A stretch of DNA of 64,000 bases from Candidatus Shapirobacteria bacterium CG_4_10_14_0_8_um_filter_39_15 (GTDB taxonomy: Bacteria > Patescibacteriota > Microgenomatia > UM-FILTER-39-15), in the NCBI GenBank assembly GCA_002784465.1, contig PFLE01000004.1:8494-72493 (forward strand), written 5' to 3'. A program made the translations under genes and the position numbers. The notes beneath the pieces were generated by a model. It was not told where the DNA came from, ran no database searches, and saw only the letters and a program-made list of their open reading frames with translations. Shown here one piece after another: positions 5,762 through 53,056 of the stretch; the first letter of the stretch is position 1, and each line of letters begins with the position of its first letter.

Positions 5762-7771
5762 ATGGATTTAATTATAGTAGAATCACCAACAAAAGCGCGA
5801 ACGTTATCAAGATTCCTGGGGTCTGATTATCAGATCGAAGCCACCATGGGCCATATCCGTGATTTGCCGCAAAAAAAGTTTGCCATTAAAACCGATAAGG
5901 ATTTTGAACCGGAATATGCGGTTGTTCCCGGAAAAGAAGAAACCATTAAAAGATTGCAAACCTTAGCCAAAAAGGCTGGTAAAATTTATCTGGCAACAGA
6001 CCCCGATCGCGAGGGAGAAGCAATCGCATGGCATGCTCGCATTGCCTGCGAAAATCCGAAATCCGAAGCACGAAATTCGAAATTTGTGAGAGCAACCTTT
6101 CACGAAATTACTAAGACGGCAATTGAACACGCGCTGAAAAACCCACGTGATATTGATATGGCCCTAGTTAATGCCCAGCAGGCGAGGAGAGTTTTGGATC
6201 GGATTGTCGGTTACAAACTCTCGCCTCTTTTGTGGTTTAAAATCCGCAAGGGTTTATCGGCAGGTAGAGTCCAAACTGTCGCGGTCCGTTTAATCGTCGA
6301 GCGGGAAAGAGAAATTGAAAAATTCATTACAGTAGAATATTGGGAAATTTTCGTGGGTTTGAAAAAACATTTGGGCGGGATGATGCCGGATGCCTCGATT
6401 TTTAATGCCAAACTAATTTCTGAAAACGGCCAAAAATTGGAATTGCATAATCAGCAAGAATCGGATATTCGGGTAAGTGAGTTAAATGACGCTGGTTATG
6501 AAGTCCAAAATATTGAGAAAAAACTGGCCAAAAGACCGCCGCCCCCGCCATTTACGACTTCGACTTTACAACAGCAAGCCGCCAATCGTTTGGGTTGGCC
6601 GGCTAAAAAAACGATGAGCGTTGCCCAAAGTCTTTATGAAAAAGGTTTAATTACTTATCACCGGACCGATTCGACTAATTTGGCAATGGAGGCGGTGATT
6701 GCCGCCAGAGAATTTATTAAACAAAAATACGGAGAGAATTTTTTACCCGAAAAACCAAGGTTTTACAAAACAAAATCAAAAGTAGCGCAGGAAGCGCATG
6801 AAGCGATACGTCCAACTGAAGTTGGGTGGGAAGCGGGAAGCGGGAAGCTGCTTGCCCTGAGCGGAGTCGAAGGGGAAGTTGGATACGATGAACAAAAATT
6901 ATACGATTTGATTTGGAAAAGATTTACGGCCTGTCAAATGAGCGAGGCAGTTTTTGATGAGACAAAGTTATCAGTCTTGGCTACATCTAAAACTAACCAT
7001 TATGATTTGGAAACCTTGGGAAGAATAATCAAATTTGCCGGCTGGTTAACTTTGTACGGTAAGGGCGAGAGTGACGAAGACGGGCAATTGCAACTACCAG
7101 AATTGTTTATCGGCGATGAATTAGATTTGGTGAAAGTGAACCCGCTACAGAAATTTACCAAACCGCCGGCGAGATATAACGAGGCTTCTTTAATTAAAAC
7201 TTTGGAAGAATACGGAATTGGCCGGCCGTCAACTTATGCCCCGACGATTTCCACAATTCAAGACCGGATGTATGTTGAAAAAACAGAGAATAAATTTTCC
7301 CCAACTTCCTTGGGAATAGCGGTTAATGATTTCCTGCTGGAATATTTTCCGGACATTTTTGATTATCAATTTACTGCCCACATGGAAGACGATTTGGATG
7401 AAATTGCCAACGGAAAAAAGGAATGGGTGCCGGTAATTAGAGAATTTTTCGAACCATTTAACACGAAGTTGACCAGTGTTTCCAAAGTTTCCGAAAGAGT
7501 GGCTGTCGAAACGGAAGTCACAGACGAAAAATGTCCGCAGTGCGGCGCGCCCCTGGTAGTTCGTTTAGGCCGTTATGGTAAATTTCTTTCCTGCTCAAAA
7601 TTCCCGGAATGTAAATTCACGAAACCTTTCATAAAAGAAGCCGGTTTTAATTGTCCAAAATGCGGCGCACCGGTGGTTTTAAGAAAAACTAAAAAAGGGA
7701 AAACTTTTTACGGTTGTTCCAAATGGCCTAAGTGTGATTTTGCCACCTGGCGTAAACCAAACGTCAACTGA
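5762..7771 (+). CDS. topA: DNA topoisomerase I
   Basis: Toprim N-terminus (IIVESPTKARTL), a catalytic domain, and two C-terminal zinc ribbons (CPQCGAPLVVRLGRYGKFLSCSKFPEC and CPKCGAPVVLRKTKKGKTFYGCSKWPKC). Confidence 0.92.
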   Translation: MDLIIVESPTKARTLSRFLGSDYQIEATMGHIRDLPQKKFAIKTDKDFEPEYAVVPGKEETIKRLQTLAKKAGKIYLATDPDREGEAIAWHARIACENPKSEARNSKFVRATFHEITKTAIEHALKNPRDIDMALVNAQQARRVLDRIVGYKLSPLLWFKIRKGLSAGRVQTVAVRLIVEREREIEKFITVEYWEIFVGLKKHLGGMMPDASIFNAKLISENGQKLELHNQQESDIRVSELNDAGYEVQNIEKKLAKRPPPPPFTTSTLQQQAANRLGWPAKKTMSVAQSLYEKGLITYHRTDSTNLAMEAVIAAREFIKQKYGENFLPEKPRFYKTKSKVAQEAHEAIRPTEVGWEAGSGKLLALSGVEGEVGYDEQKLYDLIWKRFTACQMSEAVFDETKLSVLATSKTNHYDLETLGRIIKFAGWLTLYGKGESDEDGQLQLPELFIGDELDLVKVNPLQKFTKPPARYNEASLIKTLEEYGIGRPSTYAPTISTIQDRMYVEKTENKFSPTSLGIAVNDFLLEYFPDIFDYQFTAHMEDDLDEIANGKKEWVPVIREFFEPFNTKLTSVSKVSERVAVETEVTDEKCPQCGAPLVVRLGRYGKFLSCSKFPECKFTKPFIKEAGFNCPKCGAPVVLRKTKKGKTFYGCSKWPKCDFATWRKPNVN

Positions 7772-7789
7772 CAAGGTTAGACCTTGTCA
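7769..7789. repeat. REP-like 21-bp perfect palindrome TGACAAGGTTAGACCTTGTCA (copy 1; overlaps the topA TGA stop and the RAYT stop)
   Basis: Exact palindrome read directly from the sequence. Confidence 0.9.
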
Positions 7790-8502
7790 CTAATAGTATC
7801 AGCGTTGTCGAGAGCGAATTTACCTAATAGTTCTTCAGAATTTCCCGCATAGTCTTCAATAAATTTTTTATAAGAATTTATTTCTTTAGGAATAAGAAGA
7901 TTGGTGGAATCGAAATAATCAAGAATAATTTTTGGCTTAATCCAATCGGCAGATTTATTGCCTAGATAATAATTATAACTGGAGTAGGGAGAATTGACAG
8001 GGTTAAATCCTTTATTCGATAGTTCTTTAGGATTGAGATGAATATATCGAGATAAATGTAATAGATAAGAATCTTCCTGAATTAAAGCTGCCTTAAAGGC
8101 TCCTTGGAAAAGATGCCCAACTCTTTTATATCGACTATTGAAATACATAGAATAAGTTGTTAAAAGTCTTCTTAGTAATTTAGTCATTCCGTCTAAGGTC
8201 AATTGTTGTATGAGTAAATGAAAATGGTTCGGCATAAGACAATAGGCTAGTAAGATAACTTCGTTTTTTAGATTTTGGAGCGGTCGTAATCTGACAGGGT
8301 TAAACCCTGTCAGGATAAGATTAGCAAGTGGGTGTTGTTTTTGGTCGTTTTTGGTTTGCTCGGAGAGATAATACTTTAGTAGATGTAAAAAAACTCGATA
8401 ATCTTGGTCATCTAAAAAAATGTTACGTTTTTCAACTCCTCGATTGTAAACATGGTAGAATCCGTTTTCCACATACTGCTTAATAATATTTCTGGAGGGC
8501 AT
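7777..8502 (-). CDS. REP-associated tyrosine transposase (RAYT; IS200/IS605 TnpA-like Y1 HUH enzyme)
   Basis: HUH motif (LMPNHFHLLIQ) and the catalytic-Tyr region (SRYIHLNPKE) match the RAYT signature (YIHxNPV). The gene is bracketed by two copies of the 21-bp palindrome TGACAAGGTTAGACCTTGTCA. Confidence 0.8.
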   Translation of the reverse strand: MPSRNIIKQYVENGFYHVYNRGVEKRNIFLDDQDYRVFLHLLKYYLSEQTKNDQKQHPLANLILTGFNPVRLRPLQNLKNEVILLAYCLMPNHFHLLIQQLTLDGMTKLLRRLLTTYSMYFNSRYKRVGHLFQGAFKAALIQEDSYLLHLSRYIHLNPKELSNKGFNPVNSPYSSYNYYLGNKSADWIKPKIILDYFDSTNLLIPKEINSYKKFIEDYAGNSEELLGKFALDNADTISDKV

Positions 8503-8518
8503 ATTACCTACATTTTAT

Positions 8519-8539
8519 TGACAAGGTTAGACCTTGTCA
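8519..8539. repeat. REP-like palindrome TGACAAGGTTAGACCTTGTCA (copy 2; 17 bp upstream of the RAYT start)
   Basis: Exact palindrome read directly from the sequence. Confidence 0.9.
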
Positions 8540-8600
8540 AGTGGCGAAGAAAAAAAAGAGCCCCCGGCTTTGGAAAATACACAAAGCTAATGGCTCCCCT

Positions 8601-9346: not shown

Positions 9347-10267
9347 TTGATAAACCGAATTGGAAATGTGCGCAAAAAGGATTATACTCTTTTTGTGAAG
9401 CCTTATCAAAAAATTCTGTTTTTTCTTTTTTTAATCTCTCTTGGGTTGGTGATTGGCATTTTGGTTCGTTCAAAAAATAGTTATCCGTCAACCAATCCAA
9501 TTGAAACGGGGCAACCCGTTGCCACCCAATCTGCTTTTTCTACCGCAGTTGAAGAAGCTCAAAAGAAAGAAGAAGAGAAACAACGTCAGCAGGAAGAAAC
9601 TAAAAAATTTATCGCGACTTATGGTCCGTGTCGTTTTGTCCCAGTTTTAATGTATCATCATGTTGCCAACAAATCCGGTTCTCTTTATGTCAGACCGGAT
9701 ATTTTTGCCAGCCAAATGAATTATTTAAACCAAAAAGGTTATACCTCGGTTACGTTGTCCGATGTGATGGAAAGCCTGATTTCCGGTAAACCATTGCCGG
9801 CAAAACCGGTGATAATCACTTTCGATGATGGTTATAAAGATATCTATCAAAATGCTTACGGAGTTCTTAATTTCAATAACCAAAAAGCGACACTCTTTAT
9901 TATCACTCAATTGTTGGGTGGTAGTGACTATCTGAATTGGGAAGAGTTGAGAGAAATGGCGGGCAATCCATTGATAACAGTTGGTGATCACACATTATCA
10001 CACCGCAGCCTTACTTTAATTACGGCAGCGGAAGTGAAGAATGAAATTGTTTCAGCTAAAAGCATCCTTGAAGCAAACCTGGGCGTGACAGTAAATACTT
10101 TTGCCTATCCATATGGAACATTTAATGGGGAAGCGGAACAAATTTTAAGTCAGTCAGGTTTTGCCGCCGCCGTGACCACTCACTACGGCTTAACCTGCGC
10201 CAAACTGCCCTTTGAAATTCCCCGTGTTCGGGTTGGTAATTCCCAGTTATCAGCTTACGGATTGTGA
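9347..10267 (+). CDS. Polysaccharide deacetylase (NodB-homology domain), membrane-anchored
   Basis: N-terminal TM helix, a KE-rich linker, and NodB motifs (ITFDDGYKD, TVGDHTLSHRSL). Confidence 0.75.
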   Translation: MINRIGNVRKKDYTLFVKPYQKILFFLFLISLGLVIGILVRSKNSYPSTNPIETGQPVATQSAFSTAVEEAQKKEEEKQRQQEETKKFIATYGPCRFVPVLMYHHVANKSGSLYVRPDIFASQMNYLNQKGYTSVTLSDVMESLISGKPLPAKPVIITFDDGYKDIYQNAYGVLNFNNQKATLFIITQLLGGSDYLNWEELREMAGNPLITVGDHTLSHRSLTLITAAEVKNEIVSAKSILEANLGVTVNTFAYPYGTFNGEAEQILSQSGFAAAVTTHYGLTCAKLPFEIPRVRVGNSQLSAYGL

Positions 10268-10281
10268 TTTAGCCTCTTTAC

Positions 10282-10302
10282 TGACAAGGTCTAACCTTGT
10301 CG
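10282..10302. repeat. REP-like palindrome variant TGACAAGGTCTAACCTTGTCG (copy 3; opposite orientation with a CTA centre)
   Basis: Read directly; lies downstream of the polysaccharide deacetylase gene. Confidence 0.85.
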
Positions 10303-12395: not shown

Positions 12396-12818
12396 ATGTT
12401 AGTTAAATTTAAAAAACTAAAACCGGAAGCGTCATTGCCTAGATATGCTTACCCGGGAGATACAGGAATGGATATTTTTTCTGCCGAGGATTTTATTTTA
12501 AATCCCGGAGAATGGCATAGTTTTTCTACCGGTCTTGCTTCGGAAATTTCCCCGGGGTTTTTTATAAGATTTGCTCCCAAAAGCGGGTTGGCGGTTAAAC
12601 ACGGGGTTGATACTTTGGCGGGGGTAATTGATAGTACTTATCGAGGAGAATGGATGGTGGTTTTGGTTAATCATGGTAAAGAGCCAAAAGAATTTAAAAT
12701 TGGAGATAAACTTGCCCAGGCAATTCTGCAACGGTTTGAAATGACAGAAAGATTAGAAGTTAGCGAATTATCCGGCTCGCAACGCGGTCAAGGCGGGTTT
12801 GGAAGCACTGGTAAGTAA
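12396..12818 (+). CDS. dut: dUTP diphosphatase
   Basis: dUTPase motifs (GLAVKHGVDTLAGVIDSTYRGE ... SQRGQGGFGSTGK). Confidence 0.9.
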   Translation: MLVKFKKLKPEASLPRYAYPGDTGMDIFSAEDFILNPGEWHSFSTGLASEISPGFFIRFAPKSGLAVKHGVDTLAGVIDSTYRGEWMVVLVNHGKEPKEFKIGDKLAQAILQRFEMTERLEVSELSGSQRGQGGFGSTGK

Positions 12819-12834
12819 CGATAATAACTATAGG

Positions 12835-12855
12835 TGACAAGGTTAGACCTTGTCA
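12835..12855. repeat. REP-like palindrome TGACAAGGTTAGACCTTGTCA (copy 4; between dut and thyX)
   Basis: Exact palindrome read directly from the sequence. Confidence 0.9.
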
Positions 12856-12929: not shown

Positions 12930-13649
12930 GTGAAAATCCTAAAAGGACAGGGGAGTTTTGAGATATATGAAACTCCAGAAGAGTTGAGAGTTCAGTTGTT
13001 GAAGATCGAAAGGGTCGGCCGAACGTGTTATCAGTCAGAAAGAGAACCGATAACGATGGAAACAGCGATCAAGTTTAGCCGGATGTTGGCCAGTCGTCAT
13101 CACTATTCCCTATGGAATTTTGGATTTATGACCGTAAAGTTCGTGCATTGTTCGCGGGGGTTCACTCACGAGTTAGTTCGCCATCGTCTTGCCGCTTATG
13201 CACAGGAATCAACTAGATACGTGGATTATTCTGGTGGGGATGAACCAGATTTGAAGCATTTCGAGCTTAAGTGTATTGTTCCTCCGCATCATGACGAGAA
13301 TGAGAAAATCACACTTGATGATGGACGAATAATGACTTGTTTAGAGATGCTGGGGGAAACAGAAAGGTTCTATCGAGGATTACGTTCTGCTGGTTGGCTT
13401 CCTGATGCCGCGCGGCAGCTTTTACCAACTGCTATCAAGGCAGACATCTGGATCGAGACGAACTTTACCGAATGGCGGCACATTTTCGAAATGCGAACAC
13501 AGCTAGCCGCCCACTGGGAAATCCGTGCCGTCATGTGTGCCTTGCTTGAAGCGGTTCAAAAGATTATACCTGTCATATTCGATGATTTTGTTTTGGCCGG
13601 TACGGACAAGAATGGTCTGCGATATTACGAGCTGGCAAAACAGTCATGA
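12930..13649 (+). CDS. thyX: Flavin-dependent thymidylate synthase ThyX
   Basis: ThyX RHRxxxxxxxS signature (LVRHRLAAYAQESTRY). Confidence 0.9.
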   Translation: MKILKGQGSFEIYETPEELRVQLLKIERVGRTCYQSEREPITMETAIKFSRMLASRHHYSLWNFGFMTVKFVHCSRGFTHELVRHRLAAYAQESTRYVDYSGGDEPDLKHFELKCIVPPHHDENEKITLDDGRIMTCLEMLGETERFYRGLRSAGWLPDAARQLLPTAIKADIWIETNFTEWRHIFEMRTQLAAHWEIRAVMCALLEAVQKIIPVIFDDFVLAGTDKNGLRYYELAKQS

Positions 13650-17092: not shown

Positions 17093-17290
17093 CAGAATCA
17101 ATAGCGATTCTGATTCTTGCAGCCCGTAAGGGCAGTAGAAAATTGTTAAGCCGCGTAGTTTAACGGCAAAACAACGAAAGTTATGTAGGTTCGAATCCTA
17201 TCACGGCTTAGCATTTAGCAAAAGATTACTCACACTCGATATTGCTCCCTGAAACCATAATCGAGTGGGGGAATAAGGGAGCATTTACAA

Positions 17291-34025: not shown

Positions 34026-34658
34026 ATGAATCTTCCTAGGCCAATCAGAAAATTGATTGAATCTTTTGAAAAATTACCGGGGATTGGGCCGAAAAGCGCA
34101 GCCAGGCTGACTTTCTACCTGCTTCATGTGCCTCAAGAGCAACTGGATGAATTTGCCAATTCATTGACCGGGTTAAAAAAGAATACGGTTTTATGTTCCA
34201 CCTGTTTTAATGTTTCCGAAGCTGATCCTTGTCCAATATGTTCTGATTCTTCCCGTGATCAAAGTATTATTTGTGTGGTGGAACAACCCCTGGATGTTTT
34301 GGCTATCGAGAAAACAGGTCGGTATAAAGGGTTATATCATGTGTTACATGGCGTTATTTCCCCGCTGGATAATATTGGCCCTGATGAATTATATATAAAA
34401 CAGTTGTTGGATCGACTGACAAGGTCTAACCTTGTCAACGAAGTGATCCTGGCAATGAACCCAAATATGGAAGGGGAAGCGACCTCGATGTACCTTGCCA
34501 AAAAGGTAAAAGGGCACTTACAGGGTAAACAAGAAGGCGAGAGAGCAGGAGGGATAAAAATTACTAGGTTGGGACAGGGGTTGCCGATAGGAGGGGATTT
34601 GGAGTATGCTGATGAAGTGACACTTACTCGCGCTTTAGAGGGAAGGCGAGAGTATTAA
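34026..34658 (+). CDS. recR: Recombination protein RecR
   Basis: HhH N-terminus (LIESFEKLPGIGPKSAARL), a C4 zinc finger (CSTCFNVSEADPCPIC), and a Toprim domain. A REP-like palindrome is embedded in-frame. Confidence 0.9.
   Translation: MNLPRPIRKLIESFEKLPGIGPKSAARLTFYLLHVPQEQLDEFANSLTGLKKNTVLCSTCFNVSEADPCPICSDSSRDQSIICVVEQPLDVLAIEKTGRYKGLYHVLHGVISPLDNIGPDELYIKQLLDRLTRSNLVNEVILAMNPNMEGEATSMYLAKKVKGHLQGKQEGERAGGIKITRLGQGLPIGGDLEYADEVTLTRALEGRREY
34427..34447. repeat. REP-like palindrome TGACAAGGTCTAACCTTGTCA (copy 5; in-frame inside recR, encoding RLTRSNLV)
   Basis: Exact palindrome with a CTA centre, located inside a CDS. Confidence 0.9.
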
Positions 34659-46333: not shown

Positions 46334-46408
46334 TGGGTGGCTGACGGGAATTGAACCCGCAACATCCAGTTCCACAAACTGGCGCTCTGCCATTGAGCTA
46401 CAACCACC
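46334..46408 (-). tRNA. tRNA-His (anticodon GTG) with the G-1 extra 5' nucleotide
   Basis: Reverse complement is G-GTGGTTG TA GCTC AATGGC AGAGC G CCAGT TTGTGGA ACTGG ATGTT GCGGG TTCAATT CCCGT CAGCCAC C. The cloverleaf folds with one G-U pair in the acceptor stem, and G-1 is paired with C73. Confidence 0.85.
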
Positions 46409-52974: not shown

Positions 52975-53056
52975 TGCCAAAGGGGAGACTCGAACTCCCA
53001 AGCCTTGCGGCACACGATTTTGAGTCGTGCGTGTTTACCAATTTCACCACATTGGC
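52975..53056 (-). tRNA. tRNA-Leu (anticodon CAA), type II with long variable arm
   Basis: Reverse complement is GCCAATG TGGTGAAATTGGTAAACAC GCACGA CTCAAAA TCGTGTG CCGCAAGGC TGGGAG TTCGAGT CTCCC CTTTGGC A. The anticodon loop is CTCAAAA, the T-arm is GGGAG/CTCCC, and there is one mismatch in the acceptor stem. Confidence 0.75.

Follow-up and report, generated by a model that had tools for sequence, protein, structure and literature searches.

The recR gene in a 64-kb stretch of DNA (39.6% G+C; hereafter the window) from a tiny groundwater bacterium of the Ca. Shapirobacteria carries, in frame, a 21-nt hairpin belonging to a family of repetitive extragenic palindromic (REP) elements. Judged by alignment, the element swaps out seven native codons of a V-x5-V linker of equal length and adds none, and comparison of orthologues shows a hairpin maintained across species at the nucleic-acid level. 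The recR 21-mer is a genuine copy of a family associated with a REP-associated tyrosine transposase (RAYT). On balance, we incline to the reading that copies of this family were written over tolerant coding DNA and that a process acting on the whole family then keeps the hairpin. The recR case typifies a Patescibacteria-wide habit of this REP family, namely codon replacement with the hairpin kept across species.

The 21-mer occupies codons 131-137 of recR, read as LTRSNLV, and the preceding Arg codon extends the peptide to R-LTRSNLV. It is identical at 21/21 positions to the copies at 7769, 8519 and 12835 and equals the extragenic consensus, loop included. As RNA, the hairpin folds with -13.5 kcal/mol (z = -3.05), and its 21 nt and 9-bp stem fall within the size range of REPs, which are imperfect palindromes of 20-40 bp capable of forming a stem-loop. 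A preliminary description of the window had placed the element at 34427-34447, which is 10 nt too far downstream (Table 1), and had called it a perfect palindrome, whereas it consists of 9-bp arms around an asymmetric 3-nt loop, CTA, the copy at topA being its reverse complement. The in-frame position in the Toprim region, reading RLTRSNLV, was confirmed by the open reading frame (ORF) and by Pfam. To call RecR essential was an overstatement, as recR is dispensable in model bacteria. Neither a T-run nor an intrinsic terminator was found at the hairpin site, ruling out a terminator, and no Rfam family matches it; a known RNA family is likewise ruled out, the only Rfam matches in the window being three tRNAs.

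Regarding the fate of the native sequence, the preliminary description had proposed that the palindrome was tolerated in RecR or had replaced part of it. In the alignment to the solved RecR of T. tengcongensis (PDB 3VDP), 'drltrsnlvnevila' is matched with 'erv-rdgsvkevila', placing LTRSNLV on V-RDGSV with a net change of +1. By this alignment, the REP-encoded residues lie on aligned residues and not in a gap. The segment from GPDE to ILA spans 26 residues in the window RecR and 25-28 in most of 120 relatives, in agreement with the earlier statement that the spacing before the EVILA block is unaltered. REP-free relatives of equal linker length read DR-VQESGRV-KE or DR-VRDGRV types. In the AlphaFold (AF2) model, with a predicted local distance difference test score of 69.5, a helix (residues 121-133) is followed by a loop (134-138) and a strand (139-143, EVILA); residues 131-133 thus lie at the end of the helix and 134-138 form the loop before the EVILA strand. 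The element occupies the helix end and the loop as a replacement, and a 7-codon insertion is ruled out by the linker lengths together with the alignment to the solved RecR. Replacement is upheld, since the element aligns to residues of REP-free RecRs; mere tolerance is contradicted by compensatory changes in the orthologues. Elsewhere in the protein, at about residues 160-178 (34503-34560), an 11-residue segment (the GHLQGKQEGERAGG region) is absent from the solved RecRs and varies in length among relatives; here the Toprim domain has another point that tolerates insertion.

The DNA of the nearest RecRs was retrieved and codon-aligned, and pairing statistics were derived from alignment A2. Orthologues of 74-79% nucleotide identity have a hairpin at exactly the same codons, in several discrete forms. 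The window, L008 and L001 combine left arm TGACAAGG, loop region TCTAA and right arm CCTTGTCA; L005 has TGACAGGA, TCAGA and TCCTGTCA; L007, L190 and L009/L010 have TGACAGGG, ACGGA and CCCTGTCA. In L002, TGACAAGG and CCCTGTCA enclose ATGAA with one A-C mismatch, an apparent intermediate. L192 carries TGACCCCG, CCAAA and CGGGGTCA, and L193 carries TGACCCCG, CTAAG and CGGGGTTA, with one G-U pair. In alignment A2, 91.4% of cells pair and five of the nine pairs have changed on both sides, whereas at most 42% of cells pair in slid controls. The covariation score is 0.383 versus 0.118 in shuffles, none of 500 of which reaches it. At the protein level these paired changes entail radical substitutions (Arg/Leu, Gly/Pro and Pro/Gly). 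Codon choice is fixed as well: Val137 is GTC in 8/9 sequences versus 12% usage elsewhere (P = 3e-7), and Thr132 is encoded by ACA throughout the A-type sequences and by ACC in the two of C type. The 21-mer, including the loop, agrees at 21/21 positions between genes whose DNA is 74-79% identical overall and whose third positions agree at only about 50%, and this identity holds within two discrete alleles (window/L001 and L007/L190/L009). As orthologues this divergent keep the hairpin with compensatory changes, it is old and maintained at the nucleic-acid level.

The distribution of the hairpin has limits. Among 80 recR loci of 49-66% identity (68 with a readable linker), which came from a metagenome scan with RecR and served as negative controls, no hairpin of at least 8 bp was found at the site. 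The close relative L191 (RLTGSRVN, one codon shorter) has no hairpin, and another, L194, has a 6-of-8 remnant. In a rough neighbour-joining (NJ) tree, the hairpin-bearing 'DRLT...' linkers are interspersed with unrelated ones such as ERVKGEEGRVKE. Scans of viral contigs for the two recR 21-mer alleles gave no matches. Two further observations concern the same linker. In L009 (8298-8327; recR of P0013) and in L010, 9 nt of the left arm are duplicated in tandem (CTGACAGGA CTGACAGGG, LTG-LTG) beside an intact hairpin, which shows slippage to occur at the recR site. In the close relative L195 (1090-1140; recR of P0008), a REP-free linker has another hairpin, ACCTCC and GGAGGT around a 14-nt loop with the palindrome GAAGCTTC.

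These data bear on two rival explanations. According to the first, RecR needs LTRSNLV and its codons happen to spell a REP. Relatives do encode similar residues (RLT-x4-V), but the 21/21 match with none expected in shuffles, the radical swapping of paired residues (R/G with L/P, P with G) while pairing is kept, and a codon choice fixed against the gene's own usage leave this explanation with a practically negligible probability. A chance match is refuted by shuffles, covariation and codon usage. The preliminary description had called a 21-bp perfect palindrome improbable by chance. It had added that REP-free orthologues encoding the same residues would indicate chance; as worded, this does not apply, since the orthologues with similar residues also carry the palindrome. 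The second explanation, close to the view of the preliminary description, is a passive relic, in which one ancient 21-bp REP insertion in the recR linker was offset by a compensating deletion of seven codons and then inherited neutrally. The linker varies in length and sequence among relatives, and the left-arm duplication in L009 would suit such an origin. However, synonymous sites are nearly saturated and yet identity is 21/21 within the two allele classes, and the stems change only in pairs, whereas a neutral relic would have decayed. Moreover, the exact coincidence of insertion and deletion would need to recur each time, because four further proteins with REP peptides are length-exact and Obg differs by +1. 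A passive relic is therefore highly improbable.

Membership of the recR copy in a repeat family is evident from the window itself. Six copies are present, starting at 7769, 8292, 8519, 10282, 12835 and 34417, where none is expected from dinucleotide shuffles, and five of them cluster within 5.1 kb by a transposase gene (Table 1). A shared consensus in multiple copies is thus found at 6 copies per 64 kb, and the same stem is also multi-copy in other genomes. No further degenerate copies were detected in the window at up to four arm mismatches, and other stems of at least 8 bp are unrelated singletons. A longer repeat unit is ruled out, as the flanks of the six copies have nothing in common outside the 21 nt. 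Unlike typical REPs, which lie mostly between genes and close to their 3' ends, the copies are not predominantly extragenic: three are intergenic, one lies over two stop codons and two are intragenic. In the copy at 7769-7789, the first three bases are the TGA of topA and the loop contains the TAA of the transposase gene, whose product ends ...SDKV; the ORFs bear out the earlier account that this copy provides both stops and the last transposase codons. There is no GTAG in or beside any of the six copies, and the unit ends ...TTGTCA.

Table 1. Positions of recR, of the REP copies and of other features in the window
Feature	Position	Strand	Remarks
topA (DNA topoisomerase I)	5762-7771	+	stop codon is the first three bases of a REP
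REP copy	7769-7789	-	gives topA TGA (+ strand) and the last transposase codons DKV with the TAA stop (- strand)
RAYT-like Y1 transposase (IS200-like, HUH), 241 aa	7777-8502	-	REP copies on both sides (7769-7789, 8519-8539)
Site B, half-decayed REP ATAAAGGATTTAACCCTGTCA in transposase ORF	7993-8013	-	between YIHLNP and SPYSSY
Site A, variant REP TGACAGGGTTTAACCCTGTCA in transposase ORF	8292-8312	-	encodes LTGFNPV, same frame as the recR copy
REP copy	8519-8539	-	16 nt upstream of the transposase ATG
REP copy, 1 mismatch	10282-10302	+	intergenic; 15 nt past the stop of ORF 9347-10267
REP copy	12835-12855	-	intergenic; 17 nt past the stop of ORF 12396-12818 (dUTPase-like by eye), upstream of ORF 12930-13649
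tRNA gene (Rfam)	17149-17209	+	low score: 39 bits over 61 nt
recR, full length	34026-34658	+	Pfam: HhH, C4 zinc finger, Toprim, C-terminal domain; E = 1e-64 to PDB 3VDP
REP copy in recR TGACAAGGTCTAACCTTGTCA	34417-34437	+	in frame
tRNA gene (Rfam)	46336-46407	-	
tRNA gene (Rfam)	52975-53056	-	

The transposase in question matches Pfam Y1_Tnp at 35.5 bits (cutoff 23) and shows the HUH (NHFHLL) and YIHLNP motifs. Against the curated RAYT model, NCBIfam NF047646 REP_Tyr_transpos, it reaches 38.5 bits, below the cutoff of 80. The protein is 100% identical to one of Candidatus Shapirobacteria bacterium CG08_land_8_20_14_0_20. A Y1 HUH gene flanked by REPs, the arrangement called a REPtron, is present in the window, and REP-adjacent homologues of the gene occur in 10 other loci. 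This agrees with the preliminary description, which had assigned the recR element to a REP-like family tied to a RAYT-like gene. The recR copy belongs to this family because of its 21/21 identity, its genome-specific loop, the copies flanking the Y1 transposase gene, and the RAYT homologues near REPs elsewhere. Upstream of the transposase gene (8503-8545, - strand), the REP gives cTGACA followed by a 17-nt spacer and TAAAAT before the ATG, which, read by eye only, resembles a sigma-70 promoter with the REP as the -35 box.

The transposase gene also contains REPs of its own. Site A is a perfect variant hairpin with arms TGACAGGG/CCCTGTCA (-17.4 kcal/mol). Site B matches site A at 17/21 positions, with the loop and the 3' arm intact and the 5' arm decayed, and encodes KGFNPV. 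In 120 homologues both sites are conserved protein segments, being translations of the hairpin: HPL..LTGFNPVRLRPL at site A and YIHLNP-x-E-LTG-x-NPV-x-YPYSSY at site B. Site B corresponds to NPVRAGLV...YPWSS in classical RAYTs. Its residues 3 and 6 covary across the 120 homologues (G-P 49, R-L 18, G-L 7, R-P 4; Fisher P = 1e-8, a value without correction for phylogeny), and this covariation mirrors base pair 6-16 switching between G-C and A-T.

The occurrence of the family outside the window was examined by scanning one genome per species for TGACAAGGTNNNACCTTGTCA. The scan gave 99 loci with 116 copies, versus about 9 expected for random sequence. Most matches are in Patescibacteria (Woese-, Beckwith-, Nomura-, Gottesman- and Chisholmbacteria, Paceibacterota and Saccharibacteria), and others are in Nanoarchaeota, Thiodubiliella/Bathymodiolus symbionts and gamma-labelled metagenome-assembled genomes (MAGs). 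RAYT homologues (35-57% identity) were found in 10 of the 99 8-kb REP loci from other genomes, versus about 0.8 expected. Within ORFs of at least 150 aa lie 59 of the 116 copies, and roughly two thirds do so in Patescibacteria genomes with several copies. By frame, 46 of the ORF copies read (L/M/V)TR-x-(D/N/H)LV and 13 read DKV-x-PC(Q/H); the remaining frame begins with TGA.

Alignments to solved homologues reveal the same mode of residence in other proteins. The REP peptide MTRSDLV stands on native LSFEELV in Nth (L103), LTRLNLV on FLRLNEE in LigA (L097), MTRLDLV on TTQEQVE in DeoC (L149) and LTRFNLV on LKEIGKD in UvrC (L111), each with a length change of 0, and MTRCDLV stands on SEE-ERF in Obg (L155) with a change of +1. 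Genic copies recur in orthologues of LigA (L097/L123), UvrC (L111/L175), DeoC (L149/L172) and ComEA (L108/L178). Unrelated ORFs of 189-792 aa in L121, L141, L158, L169 and L189 have LTRSDLVSKQGPTF-like segments, in which a full REP is followed by a second partial unit; these look like true in-frame additions and not replacements. Extragenic copies of an AGGG/CCCT stem variant are present in L099 and L133.

The loop is uniform within genomes across genes. In Beckwithbacteria, GCG/CGC occupies 9/10 copies, 7 of which are genic, and comparable uniformity is found in Thiodubiliella (24/24), JBBTRT (4/4) and MGHG (4/5). The loop CTA/TAG occurs in 0/116 copies from other genomes and in all five consensus copies of the window, recR included; among the 99 scan hits there was neither a copy with the loop of the window genome nor a recR copy. 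Because loops are genome-specific across genes, the genic copies derive from the master sequence of their own genome and not from independent convergence by point mutation. In the gammaproteobacterial set, Candidatus Thiodubiliella endoseptemdiera of Bathymodiolus (L093-L173) has the REP stem together with a RAYT homologue; its copies share the loop CGA (24/24) and lie mostly outside long ORFs. 'Pseudomonadales' MAGs (L098, L108, L149, L178) have both as well, and their ComEA, DeoC and RAYT genes are mutually similar. These occurrences suggest that the system has been transferred horizontally or that bins were mislabelled.

As for mechanism, coding DNA that was already present and in part resembled the current REP of the genome would be overwritten with that REP. 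One likely route is that RAYT cleaves single-stranded hairpins and exchanges strands between a REP and a quasi-REP; the other is that freed single strands of REPs anneal at the replication fork. Purifying selection would then let copies survive only in stop-free frames, and only where L-T-(R/G)-x-(N/D)-(L/P)-V suits a helix end or a loop. The same family-level process, rather than a recR-specific function, would keep the hairpin intact. A bolder proposal, which we hold only tentatively and regard as possible rather than probable, is that a RAYT-type HUH enzyme, or a process coupled to it, overwrites genes of gene-dense Patescibacteria over equal lengths from the current 21-nt REP template. The family would then reside mostly in housekeeping and repair genes, the RAYT gene among them, where it would impose a convergent seven-residue peptide on unrelated proteins and be re-homogenised over evolutionary time.

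Several points weigh against the reading that family copies were written over coding DNA and are kept by a family-level process. We know of no RAYT activity that swaps DNA length for length, so the overwriting step goes beyond the known repertoire of these enzymes. The short contigs of relatives with other recR hairpin variants have no other REP copies, even those of 11-28 kb, and so yield no REP consensus for their genomes. In L192/L193 the inner stem of the recR hairpin differs (TGACCCCG/CGGGGTCA), no extragenic copy with this stem occurs in the data, and a matching 'LTP..GV' is lacking at RAYT site B; L195 has yet another recR hairpin. The hairpins of L192/L193 and L195 fit selection for a hairpin as such at the recR site. 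In two related MAGs the DeoC copies have the same loop, which in one of these genomes is only the minority form, as would be expected from plain vertical inheritance. The source genome is represented by 6 copies in 64 kb, and the NJ tree in which linkers with and without the hairpin are intermingled was built from 173 columns.

Such observations bring up a functional RNA or DNA stem-loop specific to recR and under selection, which might, for instance, pause the ribosome, aid folding, be cut by an RNase or bind a protein, with the REP identity being secondary through recruitment or conversion of an already required hairpin. At least four different stems at the same codons, including TGACCCCG/CGGGGTCA and the L195 pair, and a CCCG-type stem without an extragenic counterpart seen in the data would be accounted for in this way. 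We nevertheless consider it unlikely, as the same 21-mer family occupies length-preserved positions in many unrelated genes, with the LigA, UvrC, DeoC and ComEA copies recurring in orthologues, and the recR loop is the genome-specific REP loop. The lack of a T-run, terminator or Rfam family at the site also tells against it, as do the absence of the hairpin from readable recR loci of 49-66% identity and its loss or decay in the close relatives L191 and L194. Overwriting by family copies, followed by upkeep at the level of the family, is thus the reading that we retain.

REPs are textbook extragenic elements, and intragenic ones are already known; length-preserving, covarying copies common to orthologues were not found described. 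A literature search returned nothing on REP/RAYT systems in Patescibacteria, nor on length-preserving genic REPs or REP covariation inside orthologous coding sequence. The present family differs from known cases in three ways: the one-for-one replacement of codons, the pairing kept despite radical residue swaps, and the persistence at the same site across species. Because of replacement, covariation and persistence, nucleic-acid constraints of a repeat family shape conserved protein sequences where genomes leave hardly any room between genes. If the overwriting mechanism is true, it would constitute a new activity linked to HUH/Y1 enzymes, and it would give rise to convergent peptides, which can confound analyses of homology and selection. 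Close relatives carry several discrete hairpin alleles at the recR site, which makes it a natural test bed.

Among known systems, the uptake signal sequences (USS) of Haemophilus and the DNA uptake sequences (DUS) of Neisseria occur about once per kb, do not form hairpins singly and are not associated with a transposase gene. They reportedly lie within genes whose length they leave unaltered, with enrichment in genes for genome maintenance (Davidsen 2004; Findlay and Redfield 2009). The present repeat resembles them as a short motif in coding DNA that changes no lengths, occupies tolerant positions in preferred frames and is found in genome-maintenance genes. Accordingly, the motif might be a preferred signal for DNA uptake or recombination that accumulates in coding DNA by point mutation and biased transformation, an explanation that length-preserving genic copies at tolerant sites, many in repair and replication genes (RecR, Nth, LigA, UvrC, ComEA), and a stem common to many Patescibacteria lineages would favour. 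It is distinctly improbable, since the density is low and uneven (6 per 64 kb, five within 5.1 kb by the transposase, instead of about 1 per kb roughly evenly), copies flank RAYT-like genes in several genomes, a hairpin with an asymmetric loop that differs between genomes is the pattern expected of REP subfamilies, and known uptake sequences have no tie to a transposase.

Rickettsia palindromic elements (RPEs) are similar in that a palindromic repeat lies in frame within a gene. RPE-1 is about 100-150 bp long and adds tens of residues as an extra surface segment, and we know of neither length-preserving replacement nor a linked transposase for RPEs. No added segment of that size is found here, the change being 0 in RecR, Nth, LigA, DeoC and UvrC and +1 in Obg. 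As cited in PMC3733652, RPEs (Ogata 2000) are in-frame palindromic repeats in genes that still encode functional proteins.

The closest comparison is with REP/RAYT systems, including REPtrons and REPINs (Nunvar 2010, PMC2817692; Bertels and Rainey 2011, PMC3116915; Messing 2012, PMC3479197). Shared features are a short consensus stem-loop, a Y1 HUH gene flanked on both sides, genome-specific subfamilies, and intergenic copies 15-17 nt past stop codons in the window. Unlike those systems, the present one has no GTAG tag, its transposase falls under the NCBIfam RAYT cutoff, about half of the copies are in ORFs, and the RAYT gene has two conserved internal copies; unlike REPINs, the units are single 21-mers and not doublets. 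Intragenic GTAG/CGTC REPs were described by Di Nocera (2013, PMC3733652) as insertions decorating the protein, of which more than half, being dimers or clusters, add 20-30 or more residues; some are at the same site in orthologues (Xanthomonas recB), and recR is absent from the main text. Among the CGTC families are variants ending in TGTC, whose stems are of 8-9 bp and whose loops are of 4-5 nt (PMC3733652); the present repeat, with ...TTGTCA at its end, resembles the TGTC variant in that ending. In contrast to those intragenic REPs, the copies described here are single units that take the place of seven codons, alter the length by 0 or +1 residue, and are conserved in orthologues with compensatory stem changes.

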